The notes beneath the pieces were generated by a model that saw only the letters and a list, made by a program, of their open reading frames with translations, was not told the DNA's origin and did not search any database. This document shows positions 6,291 to 28,676 of a DNA stretch of 33,179 bases, one piece after another. This DNA comes from Dirinaria sp. TL-2023a (Eukaryota). Positions within the stretch are counted from its first letter, which is position 1. The number at the start of each line of letters is the position of its first letter. Location: positions 1 through 33,179 of the forward strand of contig JAVEBF010000075.1 in the NCBI GenBank assembly GCA_051941275.1, given 5' to 3'. Both the position numbers and the translations under genes were made by a program.

Positions 6291-6482
6291 GAAGCTTGAA
6301 ATCACCGAACCAAGCAGTCCATTCGAGAGCTCCTCTGAAGGCCCACAAGATCTTACGTCGGCGCTACTAATATCTCATAATCCCTACGTCTGGCTTCCTG
6401 TCTCTGCTTTCTCAATTGTAATTTACGTCTGCACGAAAGGTGGTTTTCAAGGGTCTCTTCCCACTCCCATATTCTGGAGGTT

Positions 6483-6604
6483 GTATGCGCTATTGCGCAT
6501 CAGCTTCGATTAGCACTAGCCCAGACATCGTATATTCCTAATATTTGGCGAACAAGTACATGTTGAAAAATCATTTATACCCGAGTTCGACTAATGTCCA
6601 TCAG
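6483..6604 (+). other. Probable 5'-UTR intron of the Fe2OG-like gene
   Basis: GTATGC donor at 6483, GACTAAT branch site near 6589 and CAG acceptor at 6602-6604, 10 nt before the ATG. Confidence 0.55.
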
Positions 6605-6614
6605 TTAGTTAGCT

Positions 6615-8009
6615 ATGGCTACTGAGGTTCACCCTCCGATGGAGGCTATGCTGCCTACATGGATAGATGGAGTTTCCGCTGGACGGGCGGAGAACGCACT
6701 CGGTGCCGATGATTTTGATCCGGGCAAACACTTGGTAAGAATATTTCCTTCTGAATTCACATCTCGAATGCAAGAGGTCTACAGGAGCCTTCCGGAGGAG
6801 CACCGGCCCTTCATCTGCGACTCATATTTATCCATACGCATTAGGTATACTGACTCCGGGATGGTCCGACCAAGGCATTCAAACCGCCTTCAAAAGTCTA
6901 TACTATGAAAGAATTGAATTTCCCTGACGGTGCTGGAGTATCACCTGTGGCCGTCTCCGAACCTTTCTCCCTCTTCACTCAAGATGCCATTCAGCGGATG
7001 CGGGCAGAAATATTGAGCAGTAAAGTCTGGGAGAACTGCCAGTATTCCAGCAATCTAGCACAGTGCCAACTGCGAGGCTTTGCTTCCCAGTGAGTTCATA
7101 TGGATATTCTCTCACTGGGCAGGCGCTTAATGTCGAGATAGATATGCCCCGTTCGTCTACGATTCGTGGAAGAACCCTGAGGTACTCGCCATCATCTCGA
7201 ATATCGCAGGTGTCGATCTCGTGACTGCCATGGATTTTGAAATCGCGCATGTCAACATCTCCATGAAGTCGGAGAAGCAGAAAGTGGAAGAGCTTGAGGC
7301 TTTCATCGACAAGCGCCTTACGGAAGCCGACGAGGGCATTGCGGGATGCCCGTGGGAGGATGACAAGCCAATCGTCGATTGGCATACGGACGGCTATCCC
7401 TTTGTCTGCGTAACCATGTTGAGCGACTGCACCGACATGGCCGGTGGAGAGACGGCACTGCGCACAGGGTCTGGCGACATCCTGAAGGTGCGAGGGCCAC
7501 AGATGGTAAGACCTTTTTCTAAGTATTACCTCATCCATCGTTGACCCTGCTAGGGGTGTGCTGTTGTCCTGCAGGGCCGCTATATTGAGCATCAGGCGCT
7601 TCGCGCACTGGGGCAGACCGAGCGGATTTCTATGGTAACCTCCTTTCGACCTCGTAATTTCAGCTTGCCGGACGACACCGTCCTGACTACAATCCGCCCA
7701 ATTTCTGACCTGTCGGAGCTTTATTTCCAATTTAGCGAGTACCGTTTGGAAATACTTGAGGAGCGTATTCGGGATCAGCTTAGGGCTCTAAGAGAGACAA
7801 AACGGCTGGGGAGGAAATTAAATGTGAGGCGTTTCAAGAACTTCCTTTGGGAGCAAGGCGAGTTCCTTGCTCACATGAACAAAGAACTTGTTGAAGATCA
7901 GCTTGTCATCAAAGGCGAAATAGATGACAGCCATCTATTGAAGAGTACTGAAGCTCAAGACGGAAAGAAGAAGCGCAAGCAGATGGGGGATATTGAAATG
8001 AAGCTCTGA
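6615..8009 (+). CDS. Uncharacterised fungal Fe(II)/2-oxoglutarate dioxygenase-fold protein (384 aa)
   Basis: Introns 6735-6874, 7090-7141 and 7506-7553 give a continuous frame. It has an HxD..H facial triad (VDWHTDGYPFVCV ... GRYIEHQALRA), the GGET motif and a distal Arg (ERISMVTSFRP) typical of 2OG binding. Confidence 0.8.
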
Positions 8010-17705: not shown

Positions 17706-18372
17706 ATCTGGATCAAATCCGATATATTGCTCTGCCTGAGCTGCTGGTCAAATCGTACCGTCTCCTCAAGAACAATCCTCACAACATTGTGAACGATCCA
17801 GGAACAAGCCGCAGAGATTGCTTACACCGTTGCCAACGCATTTGACGGAAAGGTCAGCCATGGTGGGTGCTATAATATTTAGAACAGCCTGGTCCCACTT
17901 ATGGAAGTCTAGTTCTTCGAGATCGAAATTTGTAGCGGTGAACGAGCTTCACGTGAGGCAGAACGGCACAGACTTGAGTTGCTCGCTATACTGGTTGACT
18001 TGGCCGCTGGTAGATTGCCTTCGCAGAGTGGGAAGTGGGAAATCGAATATGCCATGTGCAAAGCTCGGGCGATGCGGTGGCGCAATTGTGAGATCTGGTC
18101 CCAGGATACCGTAAATAGGGGCGCAAACGAGGGTTTGTTTCCTGGAAACCAAGCATACACAAACGGTCTTTGGACTGCGAGATGGCTTTACGGTAAAAAT
18201 GTGACTTGAAAATTATTTTTCCATCATTTAAGGGTTACTTCTGGCCTGTGTAGGTACTGTAATTTAACCGCTCGAGTCTTTTGGGTATACTATGCATAGT
18301 TATACACAACAATGCGCTGCTCCACGGCCAAACGCCCTTAGCAATGTCGAAGCGGCCATCTCCATCACTGTG

Positions 18373-21040
18373 TCAGCTGAAAGTGCCCCAGCCGAACCTC
18401 TTGCGTCCTAGCAGCCAGGCAGCACCCGTACTGAATTGCCAGATCCCCATGCCGACCGCCAGCTCAAAGACGCCGCACATGGCCATGTTCCTAACGTAGT
18501 TGCGGACACCGCCAGAACCTGTGCCCATCCCAAACCAGCTCCGTAAGGGAATCACCTGATCTCGCCACCGCGCTGCTGGACTTGAAGGTCCGCCGCTCGC
18601 GGAAATGCTGAGGGAGCTCAGAGCCACCGAGCGCACAAACAGCGCTTCCAGGGGCAGGAAGATGAGATCGGCAAGGTGGGTCGAGAAATGCATGGCGAGT
18701 GTGTCGGCCATATGTGCCGTCAGAGCAGTCACGTGGTGGTGCTGGATGTCTGCTACCCGGGAAGTGTTAGCGTAAAGAAACGTCACTCGAAAGATGTTAT
18801 AATCGTTGACCCTCAGCTTTGGGTGATTGCAGCTGATCTCCAACGAATAATGTTATGATCGACCAAATATCCAATTGACTGCTCCAACAACGCGAGGCAC
18901 GTGATAGAGGAAATGCAACTGAGATATACTCGTCGTATCCTCCAGCTTCTCTTACCAAACAAGCAACGTACTTACAATCAGAAGTCTGCCGAGTGTCCTG
19001 AAGAAGTTCATCATCAATCGCGTGAGGCGCCTCGTCCCCTTGTCCAGGCAGGTCTGCGATGAATGCTGCTTGCAGTTGTTCGCCCAAGTGCTGCGTGTCA
19101 GGCGACTCGACCAAGTCCGTGGCAGATGACGGCTGCGGCTCCTGCTCCTGCGGTGGGGACGATTGCATGCCGGAGGAGAAATCTACAACGCTGTTACCAC
19201 CGCTCGGTTGAAGCCTATTACCAATCGCTTCTCCCATGTCCATTTGCTGTATATCTCGTAGTTCGGGACCTGGACAACCTTCGCTTAGCGGATCATGCAC
19301 TATTTCGGGTTCTGGCTCGATCAAATTCAGCCATTTTTTCAACACCAAGGTCGCGTCCTCCAGTTTCCAAACAATCCTTTGGAAGTCGTGCTTGATCATT
19401 TCTCTGAACCCTCTCCGACCTCGCCGTAGGCCGAGGATATGGAAGTGGGTGAGCTCGGCATTAAAAGCTGCTTCCATCGAATCGTGGTCTGGGTTCGATG
19501 GACTGGGTAGAGCGTTCCTGATGTAGATGAAGAGTCGCCCGTCAAACCGTTTTTTTATTCGCAGCAGTACCCAAAGCAACGGTAGCGGTGACAGCAAGAA
19601 GGAGATACCACCGATGTGAAGCATCGAAAAGGCGAATTGCGCTGGCGGCGCGATGTTCAACGTAGCCAGCCTGACCGAGGCTTTCAGATGTGGGAAAAGT
19701 GGCCAAGCGTGGACCAAATCCAGGCGCTGAAGGGTTGCAAAAAGTTCCAGTGGTGTAATGACCATGAAAGCAAGCAACTTGAGGCTAAAGTCCGTAGTGT
19801 TCAGCGACGCAGACTCTCTTTCTCACGCCTTTTTTGTGCCACTTACACTTTCTCCGAAACATCCATGACCCTGCTGATCCGCTGCTTGCGAAAAGGAGAC
19901 TGTATGCGCCATACAAAACGACGCATCAGATCGTTGTAAATGCTTCTCAAGCACTGAGGTATGGCATTTTCAATATATCGAAATGCCAAGCTAGCTACTG
20001 TTCCGGCAAAGAGGAAATGGACAGCACCGAAATGTTGCCATTCGGTCCTAACAATCGATCCGAAAGGGACGCTCGAGTAGAACCCGAAGACCTAACAACC
20101 ATGCTTTAGTCCGTATTGAAGCCACGGTCATTCCATATTATCCAGATTACATACTTGCATACGTTGCCGTAAGCCTAACAAGCACATGTTCGATATCGAA
20201 AATAAAAACCAGTCGGTCGTCGATAAAAATAGCCCGTACTCATTCTCCTTCATAATTGCTCTAATGGCAGGCCTCAAGTCGTCATCCTCCTCCACACCCC
20301 CATGAGCAACAATAGACTTCGTTCCCTTGTTCACACGTTCACATACACCAATCGTTGTTAGAACCTCATTCTGAGCCCTTCTCGACTCGCGAACCAACTC
20401 TCGGGAGATAGAGTTTTCAGGATGGCCCTGACGGTCGTATTGCTGTGCACTTTCAACGGACCGGTGTATTGGATCGACATTTTGGGAAGGGTTCGCTGGG
20501 TCTTCGGAAGAGGATGAAGCTACTGGCGGTTGATGTGCCGAGCGACCCTATAATTGCCCATCAAACATGGTCACAAGGCTTTCATGGCTCAAGGCAGAGC
20601 AGGTGTGTGATTAGATAAGTGTCAGATATGAAGTGAATCATGGGTACTGTTCAGAGAAGAGACCTCTCATGTAGACGCTAGTCTGTCCCTTTGCACCCAA
20701 ACGTGGGGTCTTAGGGAGGCTCTTCAAGCGTTTCGTTTTACCCCTGCCCTAGGTTGATTAAATGCGCAAGATGCGTTGCACGACCACTCAAAGCACAAGT
20801 CTCGTATTGGCTCCGCAGGGTTGAGCTGCTCTAATATAATGTACAATGCTTCTAGAACCTTTGTAAGGCCCCAACAATTCTTGAAAATCTTCACGGGATG
20901 GGATAGCACAGATGAGAAGAGCGAGAAATCGAAGACACGCATTCGCTGGATTTTGAAGCATGTCTGAAGTTGCTAATCATAAGGACAAAAAAAGAAGAAC
21001 TTACCAGTACTACACGGGTCACATAAGGTTGTCGGCCCAT
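18373..21040 (-). CDS. Uncharacterised multi-pass membrane protein (620 aa); probable snoRNA host gene
   Basis: Exons 21040-21005, 20547-20155, 20091-19847, 19784-18976 and 18752-18373 splice in frame with GT..AG ends: MGRQPYVTRVVL|GRSAHQP...QYDRQGHPEN...RRAQNEVLTTIGV...HHVTALT...PLEALFVRSVA...GRKRFGWGTFS. Several hydrophobic segments are present. Introns 1 and 4 are 457 and 223 nt long. Confidence 0.75.
18792..18940 (-). ncRNA. Candidate intronic box H/ACA snoRNA (about 149 nt)
   Basis: Hairpin-hinge-hairpin-tail layout inside intron 4. The 5' hairpin pairs GAUaCGAC/GUCGAUC, AUAUC/GAUAU and CAGUUG/CAAUUG. The H box AUAACA is at 18856-18851. The 3' hairpin pairs CGUUG/CAACG and UCAGCU/AGCUGA around an internal pocket. 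ACA is at 18797-18795, 15 nt from the top of the pocket. Confidence 0.65.
20645..20961 (-). ncRNA. Candidate structured intronic RNA (possibly a long H/ACA snoRNA) in intron 1
   Basis: Three closing stems (AUGCUUC/GAAGCAU, CCCUGC/GCAGGG, GAAGAGCCUC/GAGGuCUCUUC) are separated by ANANNA-type boxes (ACAUUA or AGAGCA, then AAACGA), with ACA at 20650-20648. Confidence 0.35.
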
Positions 21041-21064
21041 GAATAGCCTTTTGTTTATTTTCCT

Positions 21065-21109
21065 TTCTTCTTCTTCTTCTTCTTCTTCTTCTTCTTCTTC
21101 TTCTTCTTC
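21065..21109. repeat. (TTC)15 / (GAA)15 microsatellite
   Basis: Perfect 45-bp trinucleotide run 24 nt upstream of the minus-strand ATG at 21040. Confidence 0.95.
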
Positions 21110-25704: not shown

Positions 25705-26235
25705 ATGGCACGCATTCAAATTCCTCTGGACGCGTTGACCTCGCGGTTAAATTTGGGATCGAAATTTGAGAGCGTACGTTCTCAGTCAATCAGCACGAGA
25801 TTTGCCAACCTCAAACCCGTTTCCGAATTCCTCGACCTGAAGCGTCTCTCCAAGCCTGCAAATTTTGGGGAGGTACAAAGCAGGGTCAACTACAACCTAG
25901 GTTACTTCTCGAGCAATTACGTGGCAGTGGCTTGCATGCTTGCGATTTACAGCCTGCTGACGAACCTCACACTTCTTTTCGATATTATATTCCTCGGCTT
26001 CGGCCTCTTTGGGATCAAGAAGCTGGACGGCCGTGATCTAGAGCTAGGCTTCACCCGATTGACGACTTCCCAGCTTTACACCGTTTTACTAGTCATCACA
26101 GTCCCTCTGTTCATCTGGGCGTCGCCGATATCTACCGCATTATGGCTGGTTGGAGCTACCGGCGTGACGATCCTTGGCCACGCTTCCTTCATGGACAAAC
26201 CAATTGATACAGCTTTTTCCGAGGAGGCGGTCTAG
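25705..26235 (+). CDS. YIP3: Prenylated Rab acceptor PRA1 family protein Yip3 (Rab-GDI displacement factor), 176 aa
   Basis: MARIQIPLDALTSRLN...LKPVSEFLDLKRLSKPANFGEVQSRVNYNLGYFSSNY, two hydrophobic hairpins, and a C-terminus of GHASFMDKPIDTAFSEEAV. Confidence 0.92.
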   Translation: MARIQIPLDALTSRLNLGSKFESVRSQSISTRFANLKPVSEFLDLKRLSKPANFGEVQSRVNYNLGYFSSNYVAVACMLAIYSLLTNLTLLFDIIFLGFGLFGIKKLDGRDLELGFTRLTTSQLYTVLLVITVPLFIWASPISTALWLVGATGVTILGHASFMDKPIDTAFSEEAV

Positions 26236-26284
26236 GTGGTCGGCCGCGAACTCCATACGATATGCCCCATTGGGGAAGACCATC
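26214..26284 (+). promoter_or_regulatory. -1 programmed ribosomal frameshift signal: slippery heptamer U_UUU_UCC plus downstream pseudoknot
   Basis: TTTTTCC at 26214-26220 is phased X_XXX_ in the YIP3 frame and followed by a 6-nt spacer. Stem 1 is GCGGUC (26227-32)/GGCCGC (26242-47). The loop GGUGGUC (26235-41) can pair with GACCAUC (26278-84). The -1 frame is open to 27464. Confidence 0.85.
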
Positions 26285-27464
26285 AGCGGCTCGGCAGGGA
26301 AGGAGGCGCAAAGGTTGGGACACGTATGCAAGGCAAAAGGAGAATTGGCGTTTTGAAGACATAGATAGTGATACAGATAATAGCGACAGCGTCGGGTTAG
26401 AGGGTTCTTTCGTGAGCGATGAATTGCATTTTACGGGGGCTGATATAGGAGACCGCGGTCGGCATCGGCGTGCTATCACCCATGATTACAGTTCGGACTC
26501 GTCGGTCAATGATCCTGACGAAGAGTCAGAGGCCATGACCCAGTTGGCTTTGCGAGACAAGGAAGATATGCTCGTACAAAAGGCTTTGGAGCGTATACGG
26601 CGCGCACAGATGATGGGAAAATCAAATGTCAAATTATCTCAGCGCGAACTTGATGCACTAGAGCGCAAACAGCAAAGAAATCGATCGAAACGAAAACCTC
26701 CACGGTCGGACTCCAAGCTTGCAGGCAGACGGCGCAGCAGTGGTGCCACAGTTCCAGTACTGAAAGAAGAGAAGTCCCGAAAGAGAATCAAAGGTGTAGC
26801 ATCCGCACACGACGAAGGAAGGTCTTCAAGTCCCGCGTCTCCGCCAGGCATGTTGGTGCCTGGCCATGATGGGCCATCCAATATACCACTTGGCTACTAT
26901 CCGGTGACGACTAGGGCCCAAGGCAGGCATTGGGGACAAGCGTCTCCCAGGTTTTTGAGCCAACAACAGTCCAGCCCACCATTGGCGCAACACTCGAGAA
27001 GCCGAGGCCAGCAGAACCGACAATCACCTAGCAGCACTACGCCTTCACAGCCGACTCCTGTAAGCGGCACGCCATCGCTACATCGAAGTCTCCCTGATGA
27101 TCCGGCTTGGATCCCTCGCCCTCGCTCGGCATCTTCCAACCTACCTTACCCGTTAGATCCCTATCAATACCAACAACACTCCCCTCCGCATCCGCAAGGA
27201 CCGGGCCAATATGTGGCAAACCGGAGAATCGTCTCTGGTCCACCAGATGTTCATTATCCGGATATACAATACATGGGCACTCGCCGAGTAGTGGCCTTAG
27301 CTCAGCCGTCTGCAGCCTCCTCCGAGCCATCACTTTTGCGGCGAGAGTCCTCGTCTCGACGACTCGATCAAGGAACGTACAGTGAAGAGGACAGCGATTC
27401 TGAAGGCAATGGCGTCCAGGTCAATGTAGTGCCCTACGAGCGCGGCTATAGCGCAAATCCGTGA
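26217..27464 (+). CDS. YIP3: Frameshift-accessed C-terminal extension of Yip3 (415 aa in the -1 frame; fusion about 586 aa)
   Basis: The -1 frame reads FRGGGLGGRPRTPYD-MPHWGR... without a stop from the slip site. It includes a helical block 'QLALRDKEDMLVQKALERIRRAQMMGKSNVKLSQRELDALERK' within a Ser/Pro/Arg-rich disordered chain. Confidence 0.8.
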   Translation, partial: FRGGGLGGRPRTPYDMPHWGRPSAARQGRRRKGWDTYARQKENWRFEDIDSDTDNSDSVGLEGSFVSDELHFTGADIGDRGRHRRAITHDYSSDSSVNDPDEESEAMTQLALRDKEDMLVQKALERIRRAQMMGKSNVKLSQRELDALERKQQRNRSKRKPPRSDSKLAGRRRSSGATVPVLKEEKSRKRIKGVASAHDEGRSSSPASPPGMLVPGHDGPSNIPLGYYPVTTRAQGRHWGQASPRFLSQQQSSPPLAQHSRSRGQQNRQSPSSTTPSQPTPVSGTPSLHRSLPDDPAWIPRPRSASSNLPYPLDPYQYQQHSPPHPQGPGQYVANRRIVSGPPDVHYPDIQYMGTRRVVALAQPSAASSEPSLLRRESSSRRLDQGTYSEEDSDSEGNGVQVNVVPYERGYSANP

Positions 27465-27657
27465 TCCGAAACTTTGATGCCCAGGCCTTTGAGGGGCGAG
27501 CGGCAGAGGCTAGTCTTGAAGCTACGGTCTGATGTGGGTATATGACTAGGGCGTGAAAATCTTAGGATGCTAGCAACAGCCTTCCTTTCCGTATCACAGA
27601 AAGCATCATACATGCTGTGGATCCGCTCGATCAGTCGTCAAGTGCTGTCTGCATGTC

Positions 27658-28676
27658 CTAAACAAGCAGTATCTCTCTAATTTTCGCTTGCACTTGCTCA
27701 TCGACACCAACCTTATCTCTTAGATATTGTTTCACACCTCCGTGTTTGCTATCTAGCTCAAGGACAACAGCATCGACGAACCCTTCTGGACAGTCCGCAA
27801 ATTCCCTTCCCATCCCAAGCTTTGTAATTTCTTGAATCCTGTCATCCATTTCTGGCTCCAACTCCCTCCTACTGGTCATATAGTCCCGCGCTATAGCGTG
27901 GACGGGCACTTCGAGTAGCAATAGAAGCAATACGATCGCAAGTCCGGTCCTGTCCTTCCCCTGCGTGCAATGAACCACGATCGGGTATTGATGCTTGCCA
28001 GCAAGCAAGTGGAATACTTCCTGGATCTCGGCAGTGCTATATGCTAAAGTGTCCAGCGCTAAACCGATCAAGCCGCGCGATGCCATGACTTCAGCACCGA
28101 GAATTGATATGGCTTGCAGGCGGTAACCGAGAGCCATCAGAGAGAGCAGCTTAAACAGACTGCGCCACGAGAGCCGCCAGAGAAGGGCGCGTTCCATGGC
28201 GGTGCCGGTCAGCGAGACATAGTGATATGTTAGAGCCGGGATCTCAATCGAAACGGCGGATTTATGCTTCTCGATTTTCTGTACATGTTCCGTTCTATCT
28301 TACAGAGATAAGTAGGCCATCCAAGGGTTTATGAGCATAAGCAAGAAAGGGAGAGCGGACTTTGAACGTAGATCAATGATGCTTCGAATCTGCTTGTCAC
28401 TAACCAGAGACTCTCTGTCTTCACTGCTTGCCTCATCAGGCTTTTGCTGCGGTCAGTCTTGGAGCGGCAGCCAAAATCGACCGACTTACTCTGGCACTTC
28501 TGAACAACCTCCCTTCGCGCAAAACGCTGTAGCTAGTGAGCAGACTGAGAACGGTCTACCATGCTTTCTACTGACACATCACTCTGTAGACGATTCACTG
28601 TCTCACCGACATCACGGAAGTTCAGGATGCTTTTGAAAGGGCTGGAAGGAACTTCTTGGAGCTCTGCCGTCGCCAT
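27658..28676 (-). CDS. Protein tyrosine/serine phosphatase, PtpB/IphP-like (Y_phosphatase3) family, 284 aa
   Basis: Exons 28676-28576, 28526-28490, 28440-28361 and 28294-27658 give 'ILNFRDVG', 'GRLFRSARPDEAS', 'IRSIIDLRSKTE', the P-loop 'VHCTQGKDRTG' and 'IARDYMTS'. Confidence 0.88.

Follow-up and report, generated by a model that had tools for sequence, protein, structure and literature searches.

The 33,179-nt contig JAVEBF010000075.1 of Dirinaria sp. TL-2023a, analysed at its full length and called the window below, carries a gene on its minus strand at 18376..20547. One intron of this gene, at 18975..18753, is the subject of this work. An initial annotation made from the DNA letters proposed that the intron houses an unannotated box H/ACA small nucleolar RNA (snoRNA), perhaps a new or orphan guide RNA. 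The intron core in question lies at 18939..18792 (minus strand) and is about 148 nt long. We treat it as a candidate for a lineage-restricted, orphan box H/ACA-type snoRNA, an assignment held tentatively and at somewhat less than even confidence.

The host gene and its 223-nt intron

The host gene codes for an uncharacterised fungal protein in which no Pfam domain was found. Its C-terminal exon contains a strongly conserved FLPLEALFVRSVAL-type motif common to 12 relatives. The intron has GT..AG ends on the minus strand and is evident from both the sequence and RNA contigs; the exon upstream of it stays in phase with the downstream exon according to a reading-frame check. The splicing features, all on the minus strand, are the following.

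18753..18975, minus strand: host intron, 223 nt, defined by the sequence and by the RNA junction 18752/18976
18975..18970, minus strand: 5' splice site GTAAGT, read from the sequence
18771..18766, minus strand: branch-site-like GCTAAC, read from the sequence
18754..18753, minus strand: 3' splice site AG, read from the sequence

Four public runs (X1-X4) were mapped on 18300..19900. X1, X2, and X3 come from one lichen metatranscriptome sample, while X4 is DNA-like. In X1 and in X2 there is one RNA contig each in which 18752 is followed directly by 18976, with exactly 223 nt skipped, as the initial annotation had it; the skipped segment reads CT..AC on the plus strand, i.e., GT..AG on the minus strand. 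Contigs of X3 and X4 end short of this junction. As the X1 and X2 RNA contigs are 95-99% identical to the window, they originate from a close relative, a different strain. Since the junction is found in RNA contigs, 18975..18753 is a real and spliced intron; these contigs cover exons only, leaving the intron skipped rather than exonic. None of the X1-X4 contigs covers 18786..18947, which is uninformative on a small RNA because the libraries are of low depth and their selection is unknown.

The intron had also been described as oversized. By eye, two adjacent apparent introns of the host gene are about 60 nt long and 223 nt is long for this gene; the description thus stands for a by-eye comparison with these two apparent introns, RNA support being available for the 223-nt intron only. 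A repeat or transposon origin of the intron was considered and dropped, as no match to it was found elsewhere in the window. Upstream of the host gene, at about 21060..21100 (minus strand), there is a (GAA)n run that reads as poly-Glu in an open reading frame (ORF).

Structure, rarity, and partial conservation of the intron core

The core lies on the host strand, begins 36 nt from the 5' splice site and ends 25 nt upstream of the branch A; its position ahead of the GCUAAC branch site was correctly given in the initial annotation. The order of its parts is a hairpin, a single-stranded AUAACA, a second hairpin and ACA followed by UCU:

18857..18939, minus strand: 5' hairpin of 83 nt, about 32 pairs, a near-continuous rod (from the fold)
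18851..18856, minus strand: H-box candidate AUAACA, which fits ANANNA and forms a single-stranded hinge (from the sequence, the fold and the detector described below)
18800..18849, minus strand: 3' hairpin of 50 nt (from the fold and the detector)
18837..18840, minus strand: 5' strand of the putative pocket, GAGA (from the sequence and the fold)
18809..18812, minus strand: 3' strand of the putative pocket, GGGU (from the sequence and the fold)
18792..18797, minus strand: ACA-box candidate (18797..18795) and UCU, with the predicted 3' end at 18792 (from the sequence)

Folding of 18789..18945 gave the hairpin-hinge-hairpin-tail arrangement in both the minimum free energy (MFE) and the centroid structures (dG -45.8, z-score -2.58, 4/200 shuffles as stable), with AUAACA unpaired between the two hairpins in each of them. 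The isolated hairpins are also more stable than expected: dG -26.9 and z -2.85 for the 5' hairpin (3/200 shuffles), dG -17.2 and z -3.81 for the 3' hairpin (1/200 shuffles). These z-scores are flattered, as the hairpin boundaries were picked after folding.

The 3' hairpin consists of a lower stem of nine pairs with one U/U mismatch, an internal loop, a 6-bp upper stem and a 12-nt terminal loop GCAAUCACCCAA. The internal loop is AGA/GGG (3+3), widening to GAGA/GGGU (4+4) when the G-U pair that closes it is opened. The ACA candidate, which begins 2 nt past the lower stem, lies 15 nt downstream of the start of the loop's 3' strand. The GAGA/GGGU pocket at 15 nt from ACA, proposed by eye in the initial annotation, is therefore present both in the computed structure and in the detector output. 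In the 5' hairpin, a weak AU-rich helix (18931..18922 paired with 18871..18864) would be the pocket if opened. In the MFE structure the lower stem below it has seven pairs, which places the start of the helix's 3' strand 15 nt ahead of the H box; read in this way, both hairpins would keep to the established box distance of 14-16 nt. The terminal loop of the 5' hairpin is 3 nt long.

The rarity of the layout was assessed with a purpose-built detector, which looks for two single hairpins with an ANANNA and an ACA motif and for an internal loop, 3+3 nt or larger, at 13-17 nt from a box. The detector recovers the candidate, reporting its 3' loop as (3,3) at 15 nt. In dinucleotide shuffles of the intron, no match was obtained in 400 at the candidate's energies and one in 400 at loose cut-offs. 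When both strands of the window were scanned (66 kb), loose cut-offs gave seven matches, the candidate and six others, of which one, 26817..26971 (plus strand), also reached the candidate's energies. We estimate from these counts in shuffles and in the window that such a layout would arise by chance in about 0.3-2% of stretches of the candidate's size, i.e., that it is rarer than chance. The arrangement claimed in the initial annotation is thus borne out by both folds and by the detector, and is unusual relative to shuffles.

The 26817..26971 match has AUACCA as its H box and a 5+6 loop at 14 nt, lies within a 418-aa ORF (26208..27464), is no more stable than its shuffles (z-score -0.54) and was taken as a false positive. 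The weaker matches at loose cut-offs are all on the minus strand: 28175..28047, 27673..27530, 20800..20667, 7719..7562, and 6604..6479.

Part of the 5' hairpin could be compared with relatives through protein tails. Relatives of the host protein include prokaryote-style ORF calls which run past the exon end into the intron. A phmmer search listed 59 relatives, and tails were read for seven of them and for P0002. The introns of P0001 and P0002 are known only from such tails, which end before the H box; none of the tails read reaches it, and a separate search for shorter proteins found no further tails. In a tblastn comparison of the tails with the introns, one block of P0001 was the only clear match:

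18873..18917, minus strand: block of 45 nt that forms the 5' hairpin apex and has hardly changed in P0001 (from tail comparison)

P0001 is 75% identical to the host protein in the exon, and its tail CISSITCLALVEQSI corresponds to CISSITCLALLEQSI in frame B of the window. Because the species of P0001 and the window read the block in different frames relative to the exon, its conservation is at the nucleotide level. Back-translation points to one change in the 30 determinable positions of 18917..18873, while the 36 determinable positions just upstream would have at least 10 changes (at least 28%) and a 3-nt deletion. By a rough estimate, not a computed value, this contrast between block and flank is significant at about 0.01. 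The block covers both arms of the upper half of the 5' hairpin and includes ATCACGTG at 18905..18898. This may be an E-box/Cbf1-type motif. Tails of more distant relatives also continue past the exon end, for at least 76 codons in P0015, at least 68 in P0017 and at least 41 in P0029, which suggests that long introns occur at or near the host position in several lineages.

RNA families, targets, and orthologous introns

A number of results weigh against the assignment of the core to H/ACA RNAs, beginning with its own structure. The fold of the whole intron is unexceptional (z -0.82, 38/200 shuffles). The 3' pocket has just 3-4 nt per strand, which is about the lower limit for a working guide. 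In the MFE fold the 5' hairpin has no open internal loop, and the detector reports no pocket there. What P0001 conserves is the apical part of this hairpin, which is not needed for H/ACA function. In the species of P0002 (58% identical) the same block appears to differ at 11-12 of the 30 determinable positions, and several stem pairs of the window look broken there.

Rfam gave no match at the gathering score in the whole window. Searches of 18600..19100 and 18785..18945 at E <= 10 found no H/ACA family either, so the Rfam check proposed together with the snoRNA claim did not support it. The matches obtained there at E <= 10 were chance ones, to box C/D and long non-coding RNAs only, with E above 2. 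The box C/D class, to which most intronic snoRNAs of filamentous fungi belong, was considered separately, with a C box (RUGAUGA) and a D box (CUGA) near the ends, together with 10-12 nt or more of antisense complementarity to ribosomal RNA (rRNA), as criteria. It was rejected, since the intron lacks a C box as well as a long antisense element. A UGAUGA that accounts for the weak C/D matches in Rfam sits in the upstream exon, and the longest duplexes between the intron and rRNA are 10-14 bp with up to two G-U pairs, none of them adjoining a D box.

For the target search, rRNA sequences were taken from eukaryotic ribosomal DNA (rDNA) contaminating bacterial assemblies, fetched by a primer-site pattern and mapped with Rfam. 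Many bacterial assemblies and metagenome-assembled genomes (L001-L058) carry such contigs, mostly fungal-looking. A scan of viral contigs for rDNA yielded one 380-nt fragment of the large subunit (LSU) 3' part only. The set comprised complete 18S and 5.8S rRNAs of several fungi, 25S rRNA from Rfam model position 1 to about 2270-2290, and the 25S 3' part from L034. This amounts to about 97% of 25S; about 90 nt just after the 5' contigs were left out, as were the species' own rRNA, small nuclear RNAs and transfer RNAs. Several LSU contigs break near one point, at model position about 2270-2290, and the LSU 3' part of L034 is fused to about 155 nt of GC-rich sequence that is not rRNA.

With at least eight contiguous pairs required, the 3' pocket gave 10 matches, which come down to four places in rRNA. 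Two of these are in 18S, one shared by three fungi and the other present in a single fungus, and two lie next to each other in 25S. Every one of the 10 matches depends on G-U pairs. The pocket pattern is estimated to occur by chance about once in 4096 nt, or at about one site per rRNA set. Under a score that penalises wobble pairs, no rRNA site passes for the 3' pocket as drawn. Across the 18S and 5.8S rRNAs of fungi and about 97% of 25S rRNA, no in-register pocket target was thus found, in keeping with the initial annotation, which could assign no target. The LSU segment that it named as a near match is found in one fungal LSU (AACCUAUUCUC, L006) and is indeed out of register, leaving three unpaired nucleotides, not two. 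Pezizomycotina-like LSUs differ at that site (CAUCCAUUCUC in L037, L041, and L042). This string was rejected as a target, having partial complementarity in the wrong register. A neighbouring LSU segment, AAAUAUGUAAGAAG, pairs at eight positions with the 3' strand of the 5' "pocket" and was rejected because of a mismatch at the pocket top.

Loci related to the host gene were sought in metagenome contigs. A scan with alignment A1 gave 309 pattern matches and no confirmed locus, and a second scan with alignment A2, which represents the conserved C-terminal exon, found 11 related loci. In seven of these (L068-L074, 38-54% identical) there is no intron at the host position. The other four (L064-L067, 65% identical) share the intron position of the host gene, and theirs is the sole orthologous intron that can be read as DNA:

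L064, L066 and L067, 2813..3049, and L065, 1359..1595, strand not given: orthologous 237-nt intron (from the DNA of the related loci)

This intron forms two stable hairpins (z -2.8 and -2.7) and lacks an H or an ACA box at matching places: the only ANANNA upstream of the hairpins sits within a stem, and no ACA follows either hairpin. The detector found nothing in any of the three introns of this group that were tested. Rfam returned nothing useful for the orthologous intron, and BLAST gave no match between it and the window intron. Global alignment to the window intron, with the shared splice signals included, reached z 2.5 for L064 (4/300 shuffles) and z 1.8 for L065 (16/300). The two introns have a few collinear short motifs in common, e.g., 11/12 positions in the second-hairpin loop; homology of these motifs is not regarded as established. 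Between L064 and L066, which represent two close lineages, the intron differs at 17/237 positions (7.2%), compared with 172/6432 (2.7%) for the whole locus. It looks as if the intron diverges like unconstrained DNA, similarly to other noncoding stretches. A covariance model was built from the candidate and its MFE structure and searched, with filters off, on the window and the 11 loci. At E <= 10 it gave four matches, the candidate itself and three others in the window (E >= 0.7), and none in the 11 loci. A "zipper" pairing between the intron ends was also tried and rejected, as 107/1000 shuffles pair equally well in the window and 102/500 in each of L064 and L065.

The conservation of boxes and stems in related genomes, whose absence was to count against the snoRNA claim, therefore went against it at the single depth readable as DNA. 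This outcome weakens the claim without refuting it. According to "The fungal snoRNAome" (PMC5824354), 22/50 fungal H/ACA families are confined to a small subset of species and seven families are orphan. As fungal H/ACA families turn over fast and are often lineage-restricted (PMC5824354), a missing counterpart at 65% protein identity is weak counter-evidence and the failure is not decisive. The patchy distribution of the candidate, present in the window and not recognisable in the more distant orthologous intron, fits the high rate of lineage-specific gain and loss described there.

Neurospora crassa offers the closest comparison, drawn here at the level of published descriptions. In N. crassa (PMC2780460), two of 20 H/ACA snoRNAs are intronic, compared with 45/55 C/D snoRNAs, the H/ACA genes being mostly intergenic; this sets a low prior for an intronic H/ACA RNA. 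Of the 131 snoGPS predictions of H/ACA RNAs reported there, three overlapped validated RNAs. The two intronic ones, Nc ACA1 (136 nt) and Nc ACA9 (201 nt, orphan), resemble the candidate in being single RNAs on the host strand of their introns. They have the same succession of hairpin, H box, hairpin and ACA, and the ~148 nt of the candidate are within the size range reported there. Six of the 20 N. crassa H/ACA snoRNAs are orphan (PMC2780460), and the candidate, like them, may have no rRNA target. Unlike the N. crassa RNAs, the candidate is a prediction from sequence, has a pocket of 3-4 nt per strand and shows no resemblance to an Rfam family.

Interpretation of the intron core

Should the core be an H/ACA snoRNA, the excised intron would be debranched and trimmed by exonucleases down to an H/ACA particle, in which Cbf5, Nop10, Gar1, and Nhp2 would be assembled on the two hairpins and boxes, as in established H/ACA biology. 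The 3' pocket GAGA/GGGU would take 5'-RYYY-U-N-UYUY-3', the unpaired U being converted to pseudouridine by Cbf5, and the 5' hairpin would be structural only. Since no substrate was found, the RNA would best be called orphan, or a guide for an RNA outside the scan. To weigh this reading, the prior for a long intron was set at roughly 1%, and the layout was taken to contribute a likelihood ratio of about 40-200. The smallness of the pocket, the failure to find a target and the absence of boxes in the orthologue were then counted against it, and a small credit was given for the uneven conservation in P0001. The proposal of a new or orphan guide RNA thus keeps its anatomy, which is present and statistically unusual, and lacks conserved boxes and a target.

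An ordinary long intron with a chance H/ACA-like fold, degraded after splicing and containing no snoRNA, is also a serious possibility, though one to which we give rather less credence. Stable internal hairpins are common to the window intron and the L064-L067 intron, as in long structured introns without an RNA gene. The latter intron has no boxes and diverges at a neutral-looking rate (7.2% against 2.7% for the locus), and the minimal pocket, the lack of an rRNA target or Rfam match and the whole-intron z-score of -0.82 are all what a chance fold would give. So are the six other loose-cut-off matches in 66 kb, at least one of them in coding DNA, and computational H/ACA prediction was mostly wrong in a filamentous fungus (PMC2780460). 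The window intron differs from such structured introns in having correctly placed ANANNA and ACA with 15-nt spacing. A chance origin also has to contend with the 0/400 shuffles that show the layout at the candidate's energies, with the stability of each hairpin relative to its shuffles and with the equality of both box distances at 15 nt, and it leaves unexplained why 45 nt are nearly identical in P0001 when the adjoining flank has diverged by at least 28%.

That block could instead be the centre of another functional element, either a regulatory RNA hairpin acting on host splicing or stability or a site at the DNA level, with the H/ACA-like boxes incidental. We consider this unlikely. It would explain why the hairpin apex is the only part shown to be conserved, rather than boxes or pockets. 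It also agrees with the loosely similar motif GCAU.U.CUC..UAUC and a rod-like hairpin in the L064-L067 intron, and with the long tails of P0015, P0017, and P0029, which point to a long intron being retained here or close by. Yet the block does not seem to be conserved in the species of P0002, the L064-L067 intron evolves neutrally, and its similarity to the window intron is marginal. Least probable is that the 83-nt 5' hairpin is the precursor of a Dicer-dependent small RNA, i.e., an intronic microRNA-like RNA. Its long near-continuous stem (about 32 pairs, dG -26.9) would suit such a role, as would the extension of the conserved block over both arms of the upper half. The terminal loop of just 3 nt would not, and the 3' hairpin and the boxes would be left unexplained.

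Within the preferred reading of the core as an orphan H/ACA-type snoRNA, we also entertain a bolder version, which we regard as distinctly improbable. Here a lichen-associated ascomycete would have an H/ACA RNA of recent origin, restricted to its lineage and without a role in guiding rRNA pseudouridylation. The minimal 4+4 pocket may act on a substrate other than rRNA, and the 5' apex (18917..18873) may have a second function such as protein binding or regulation of the host transcript. If true, we would be looking at an H/ACA scaffold at an early stage of evolution.

Whichever reading holds, the biology is ordinary and no long-standing question is at stake. If the fold is due to chance, it warns that long introns can produce H/ACA layouts that look like the textbook case, a caution that computational screens of fungi had raised before (PMC2780460). 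If the snoRNA is real, it would be an unannotated, probably orphan H/ACA snoRNA in a group of fungi that has hardly been searched for snoRNAs: the main text of a 147-species fungal survey has no mention of Lecanoromycetes (PMC5824354). It would also present a case of H/ACA gain or loss within one orthologous host intron.

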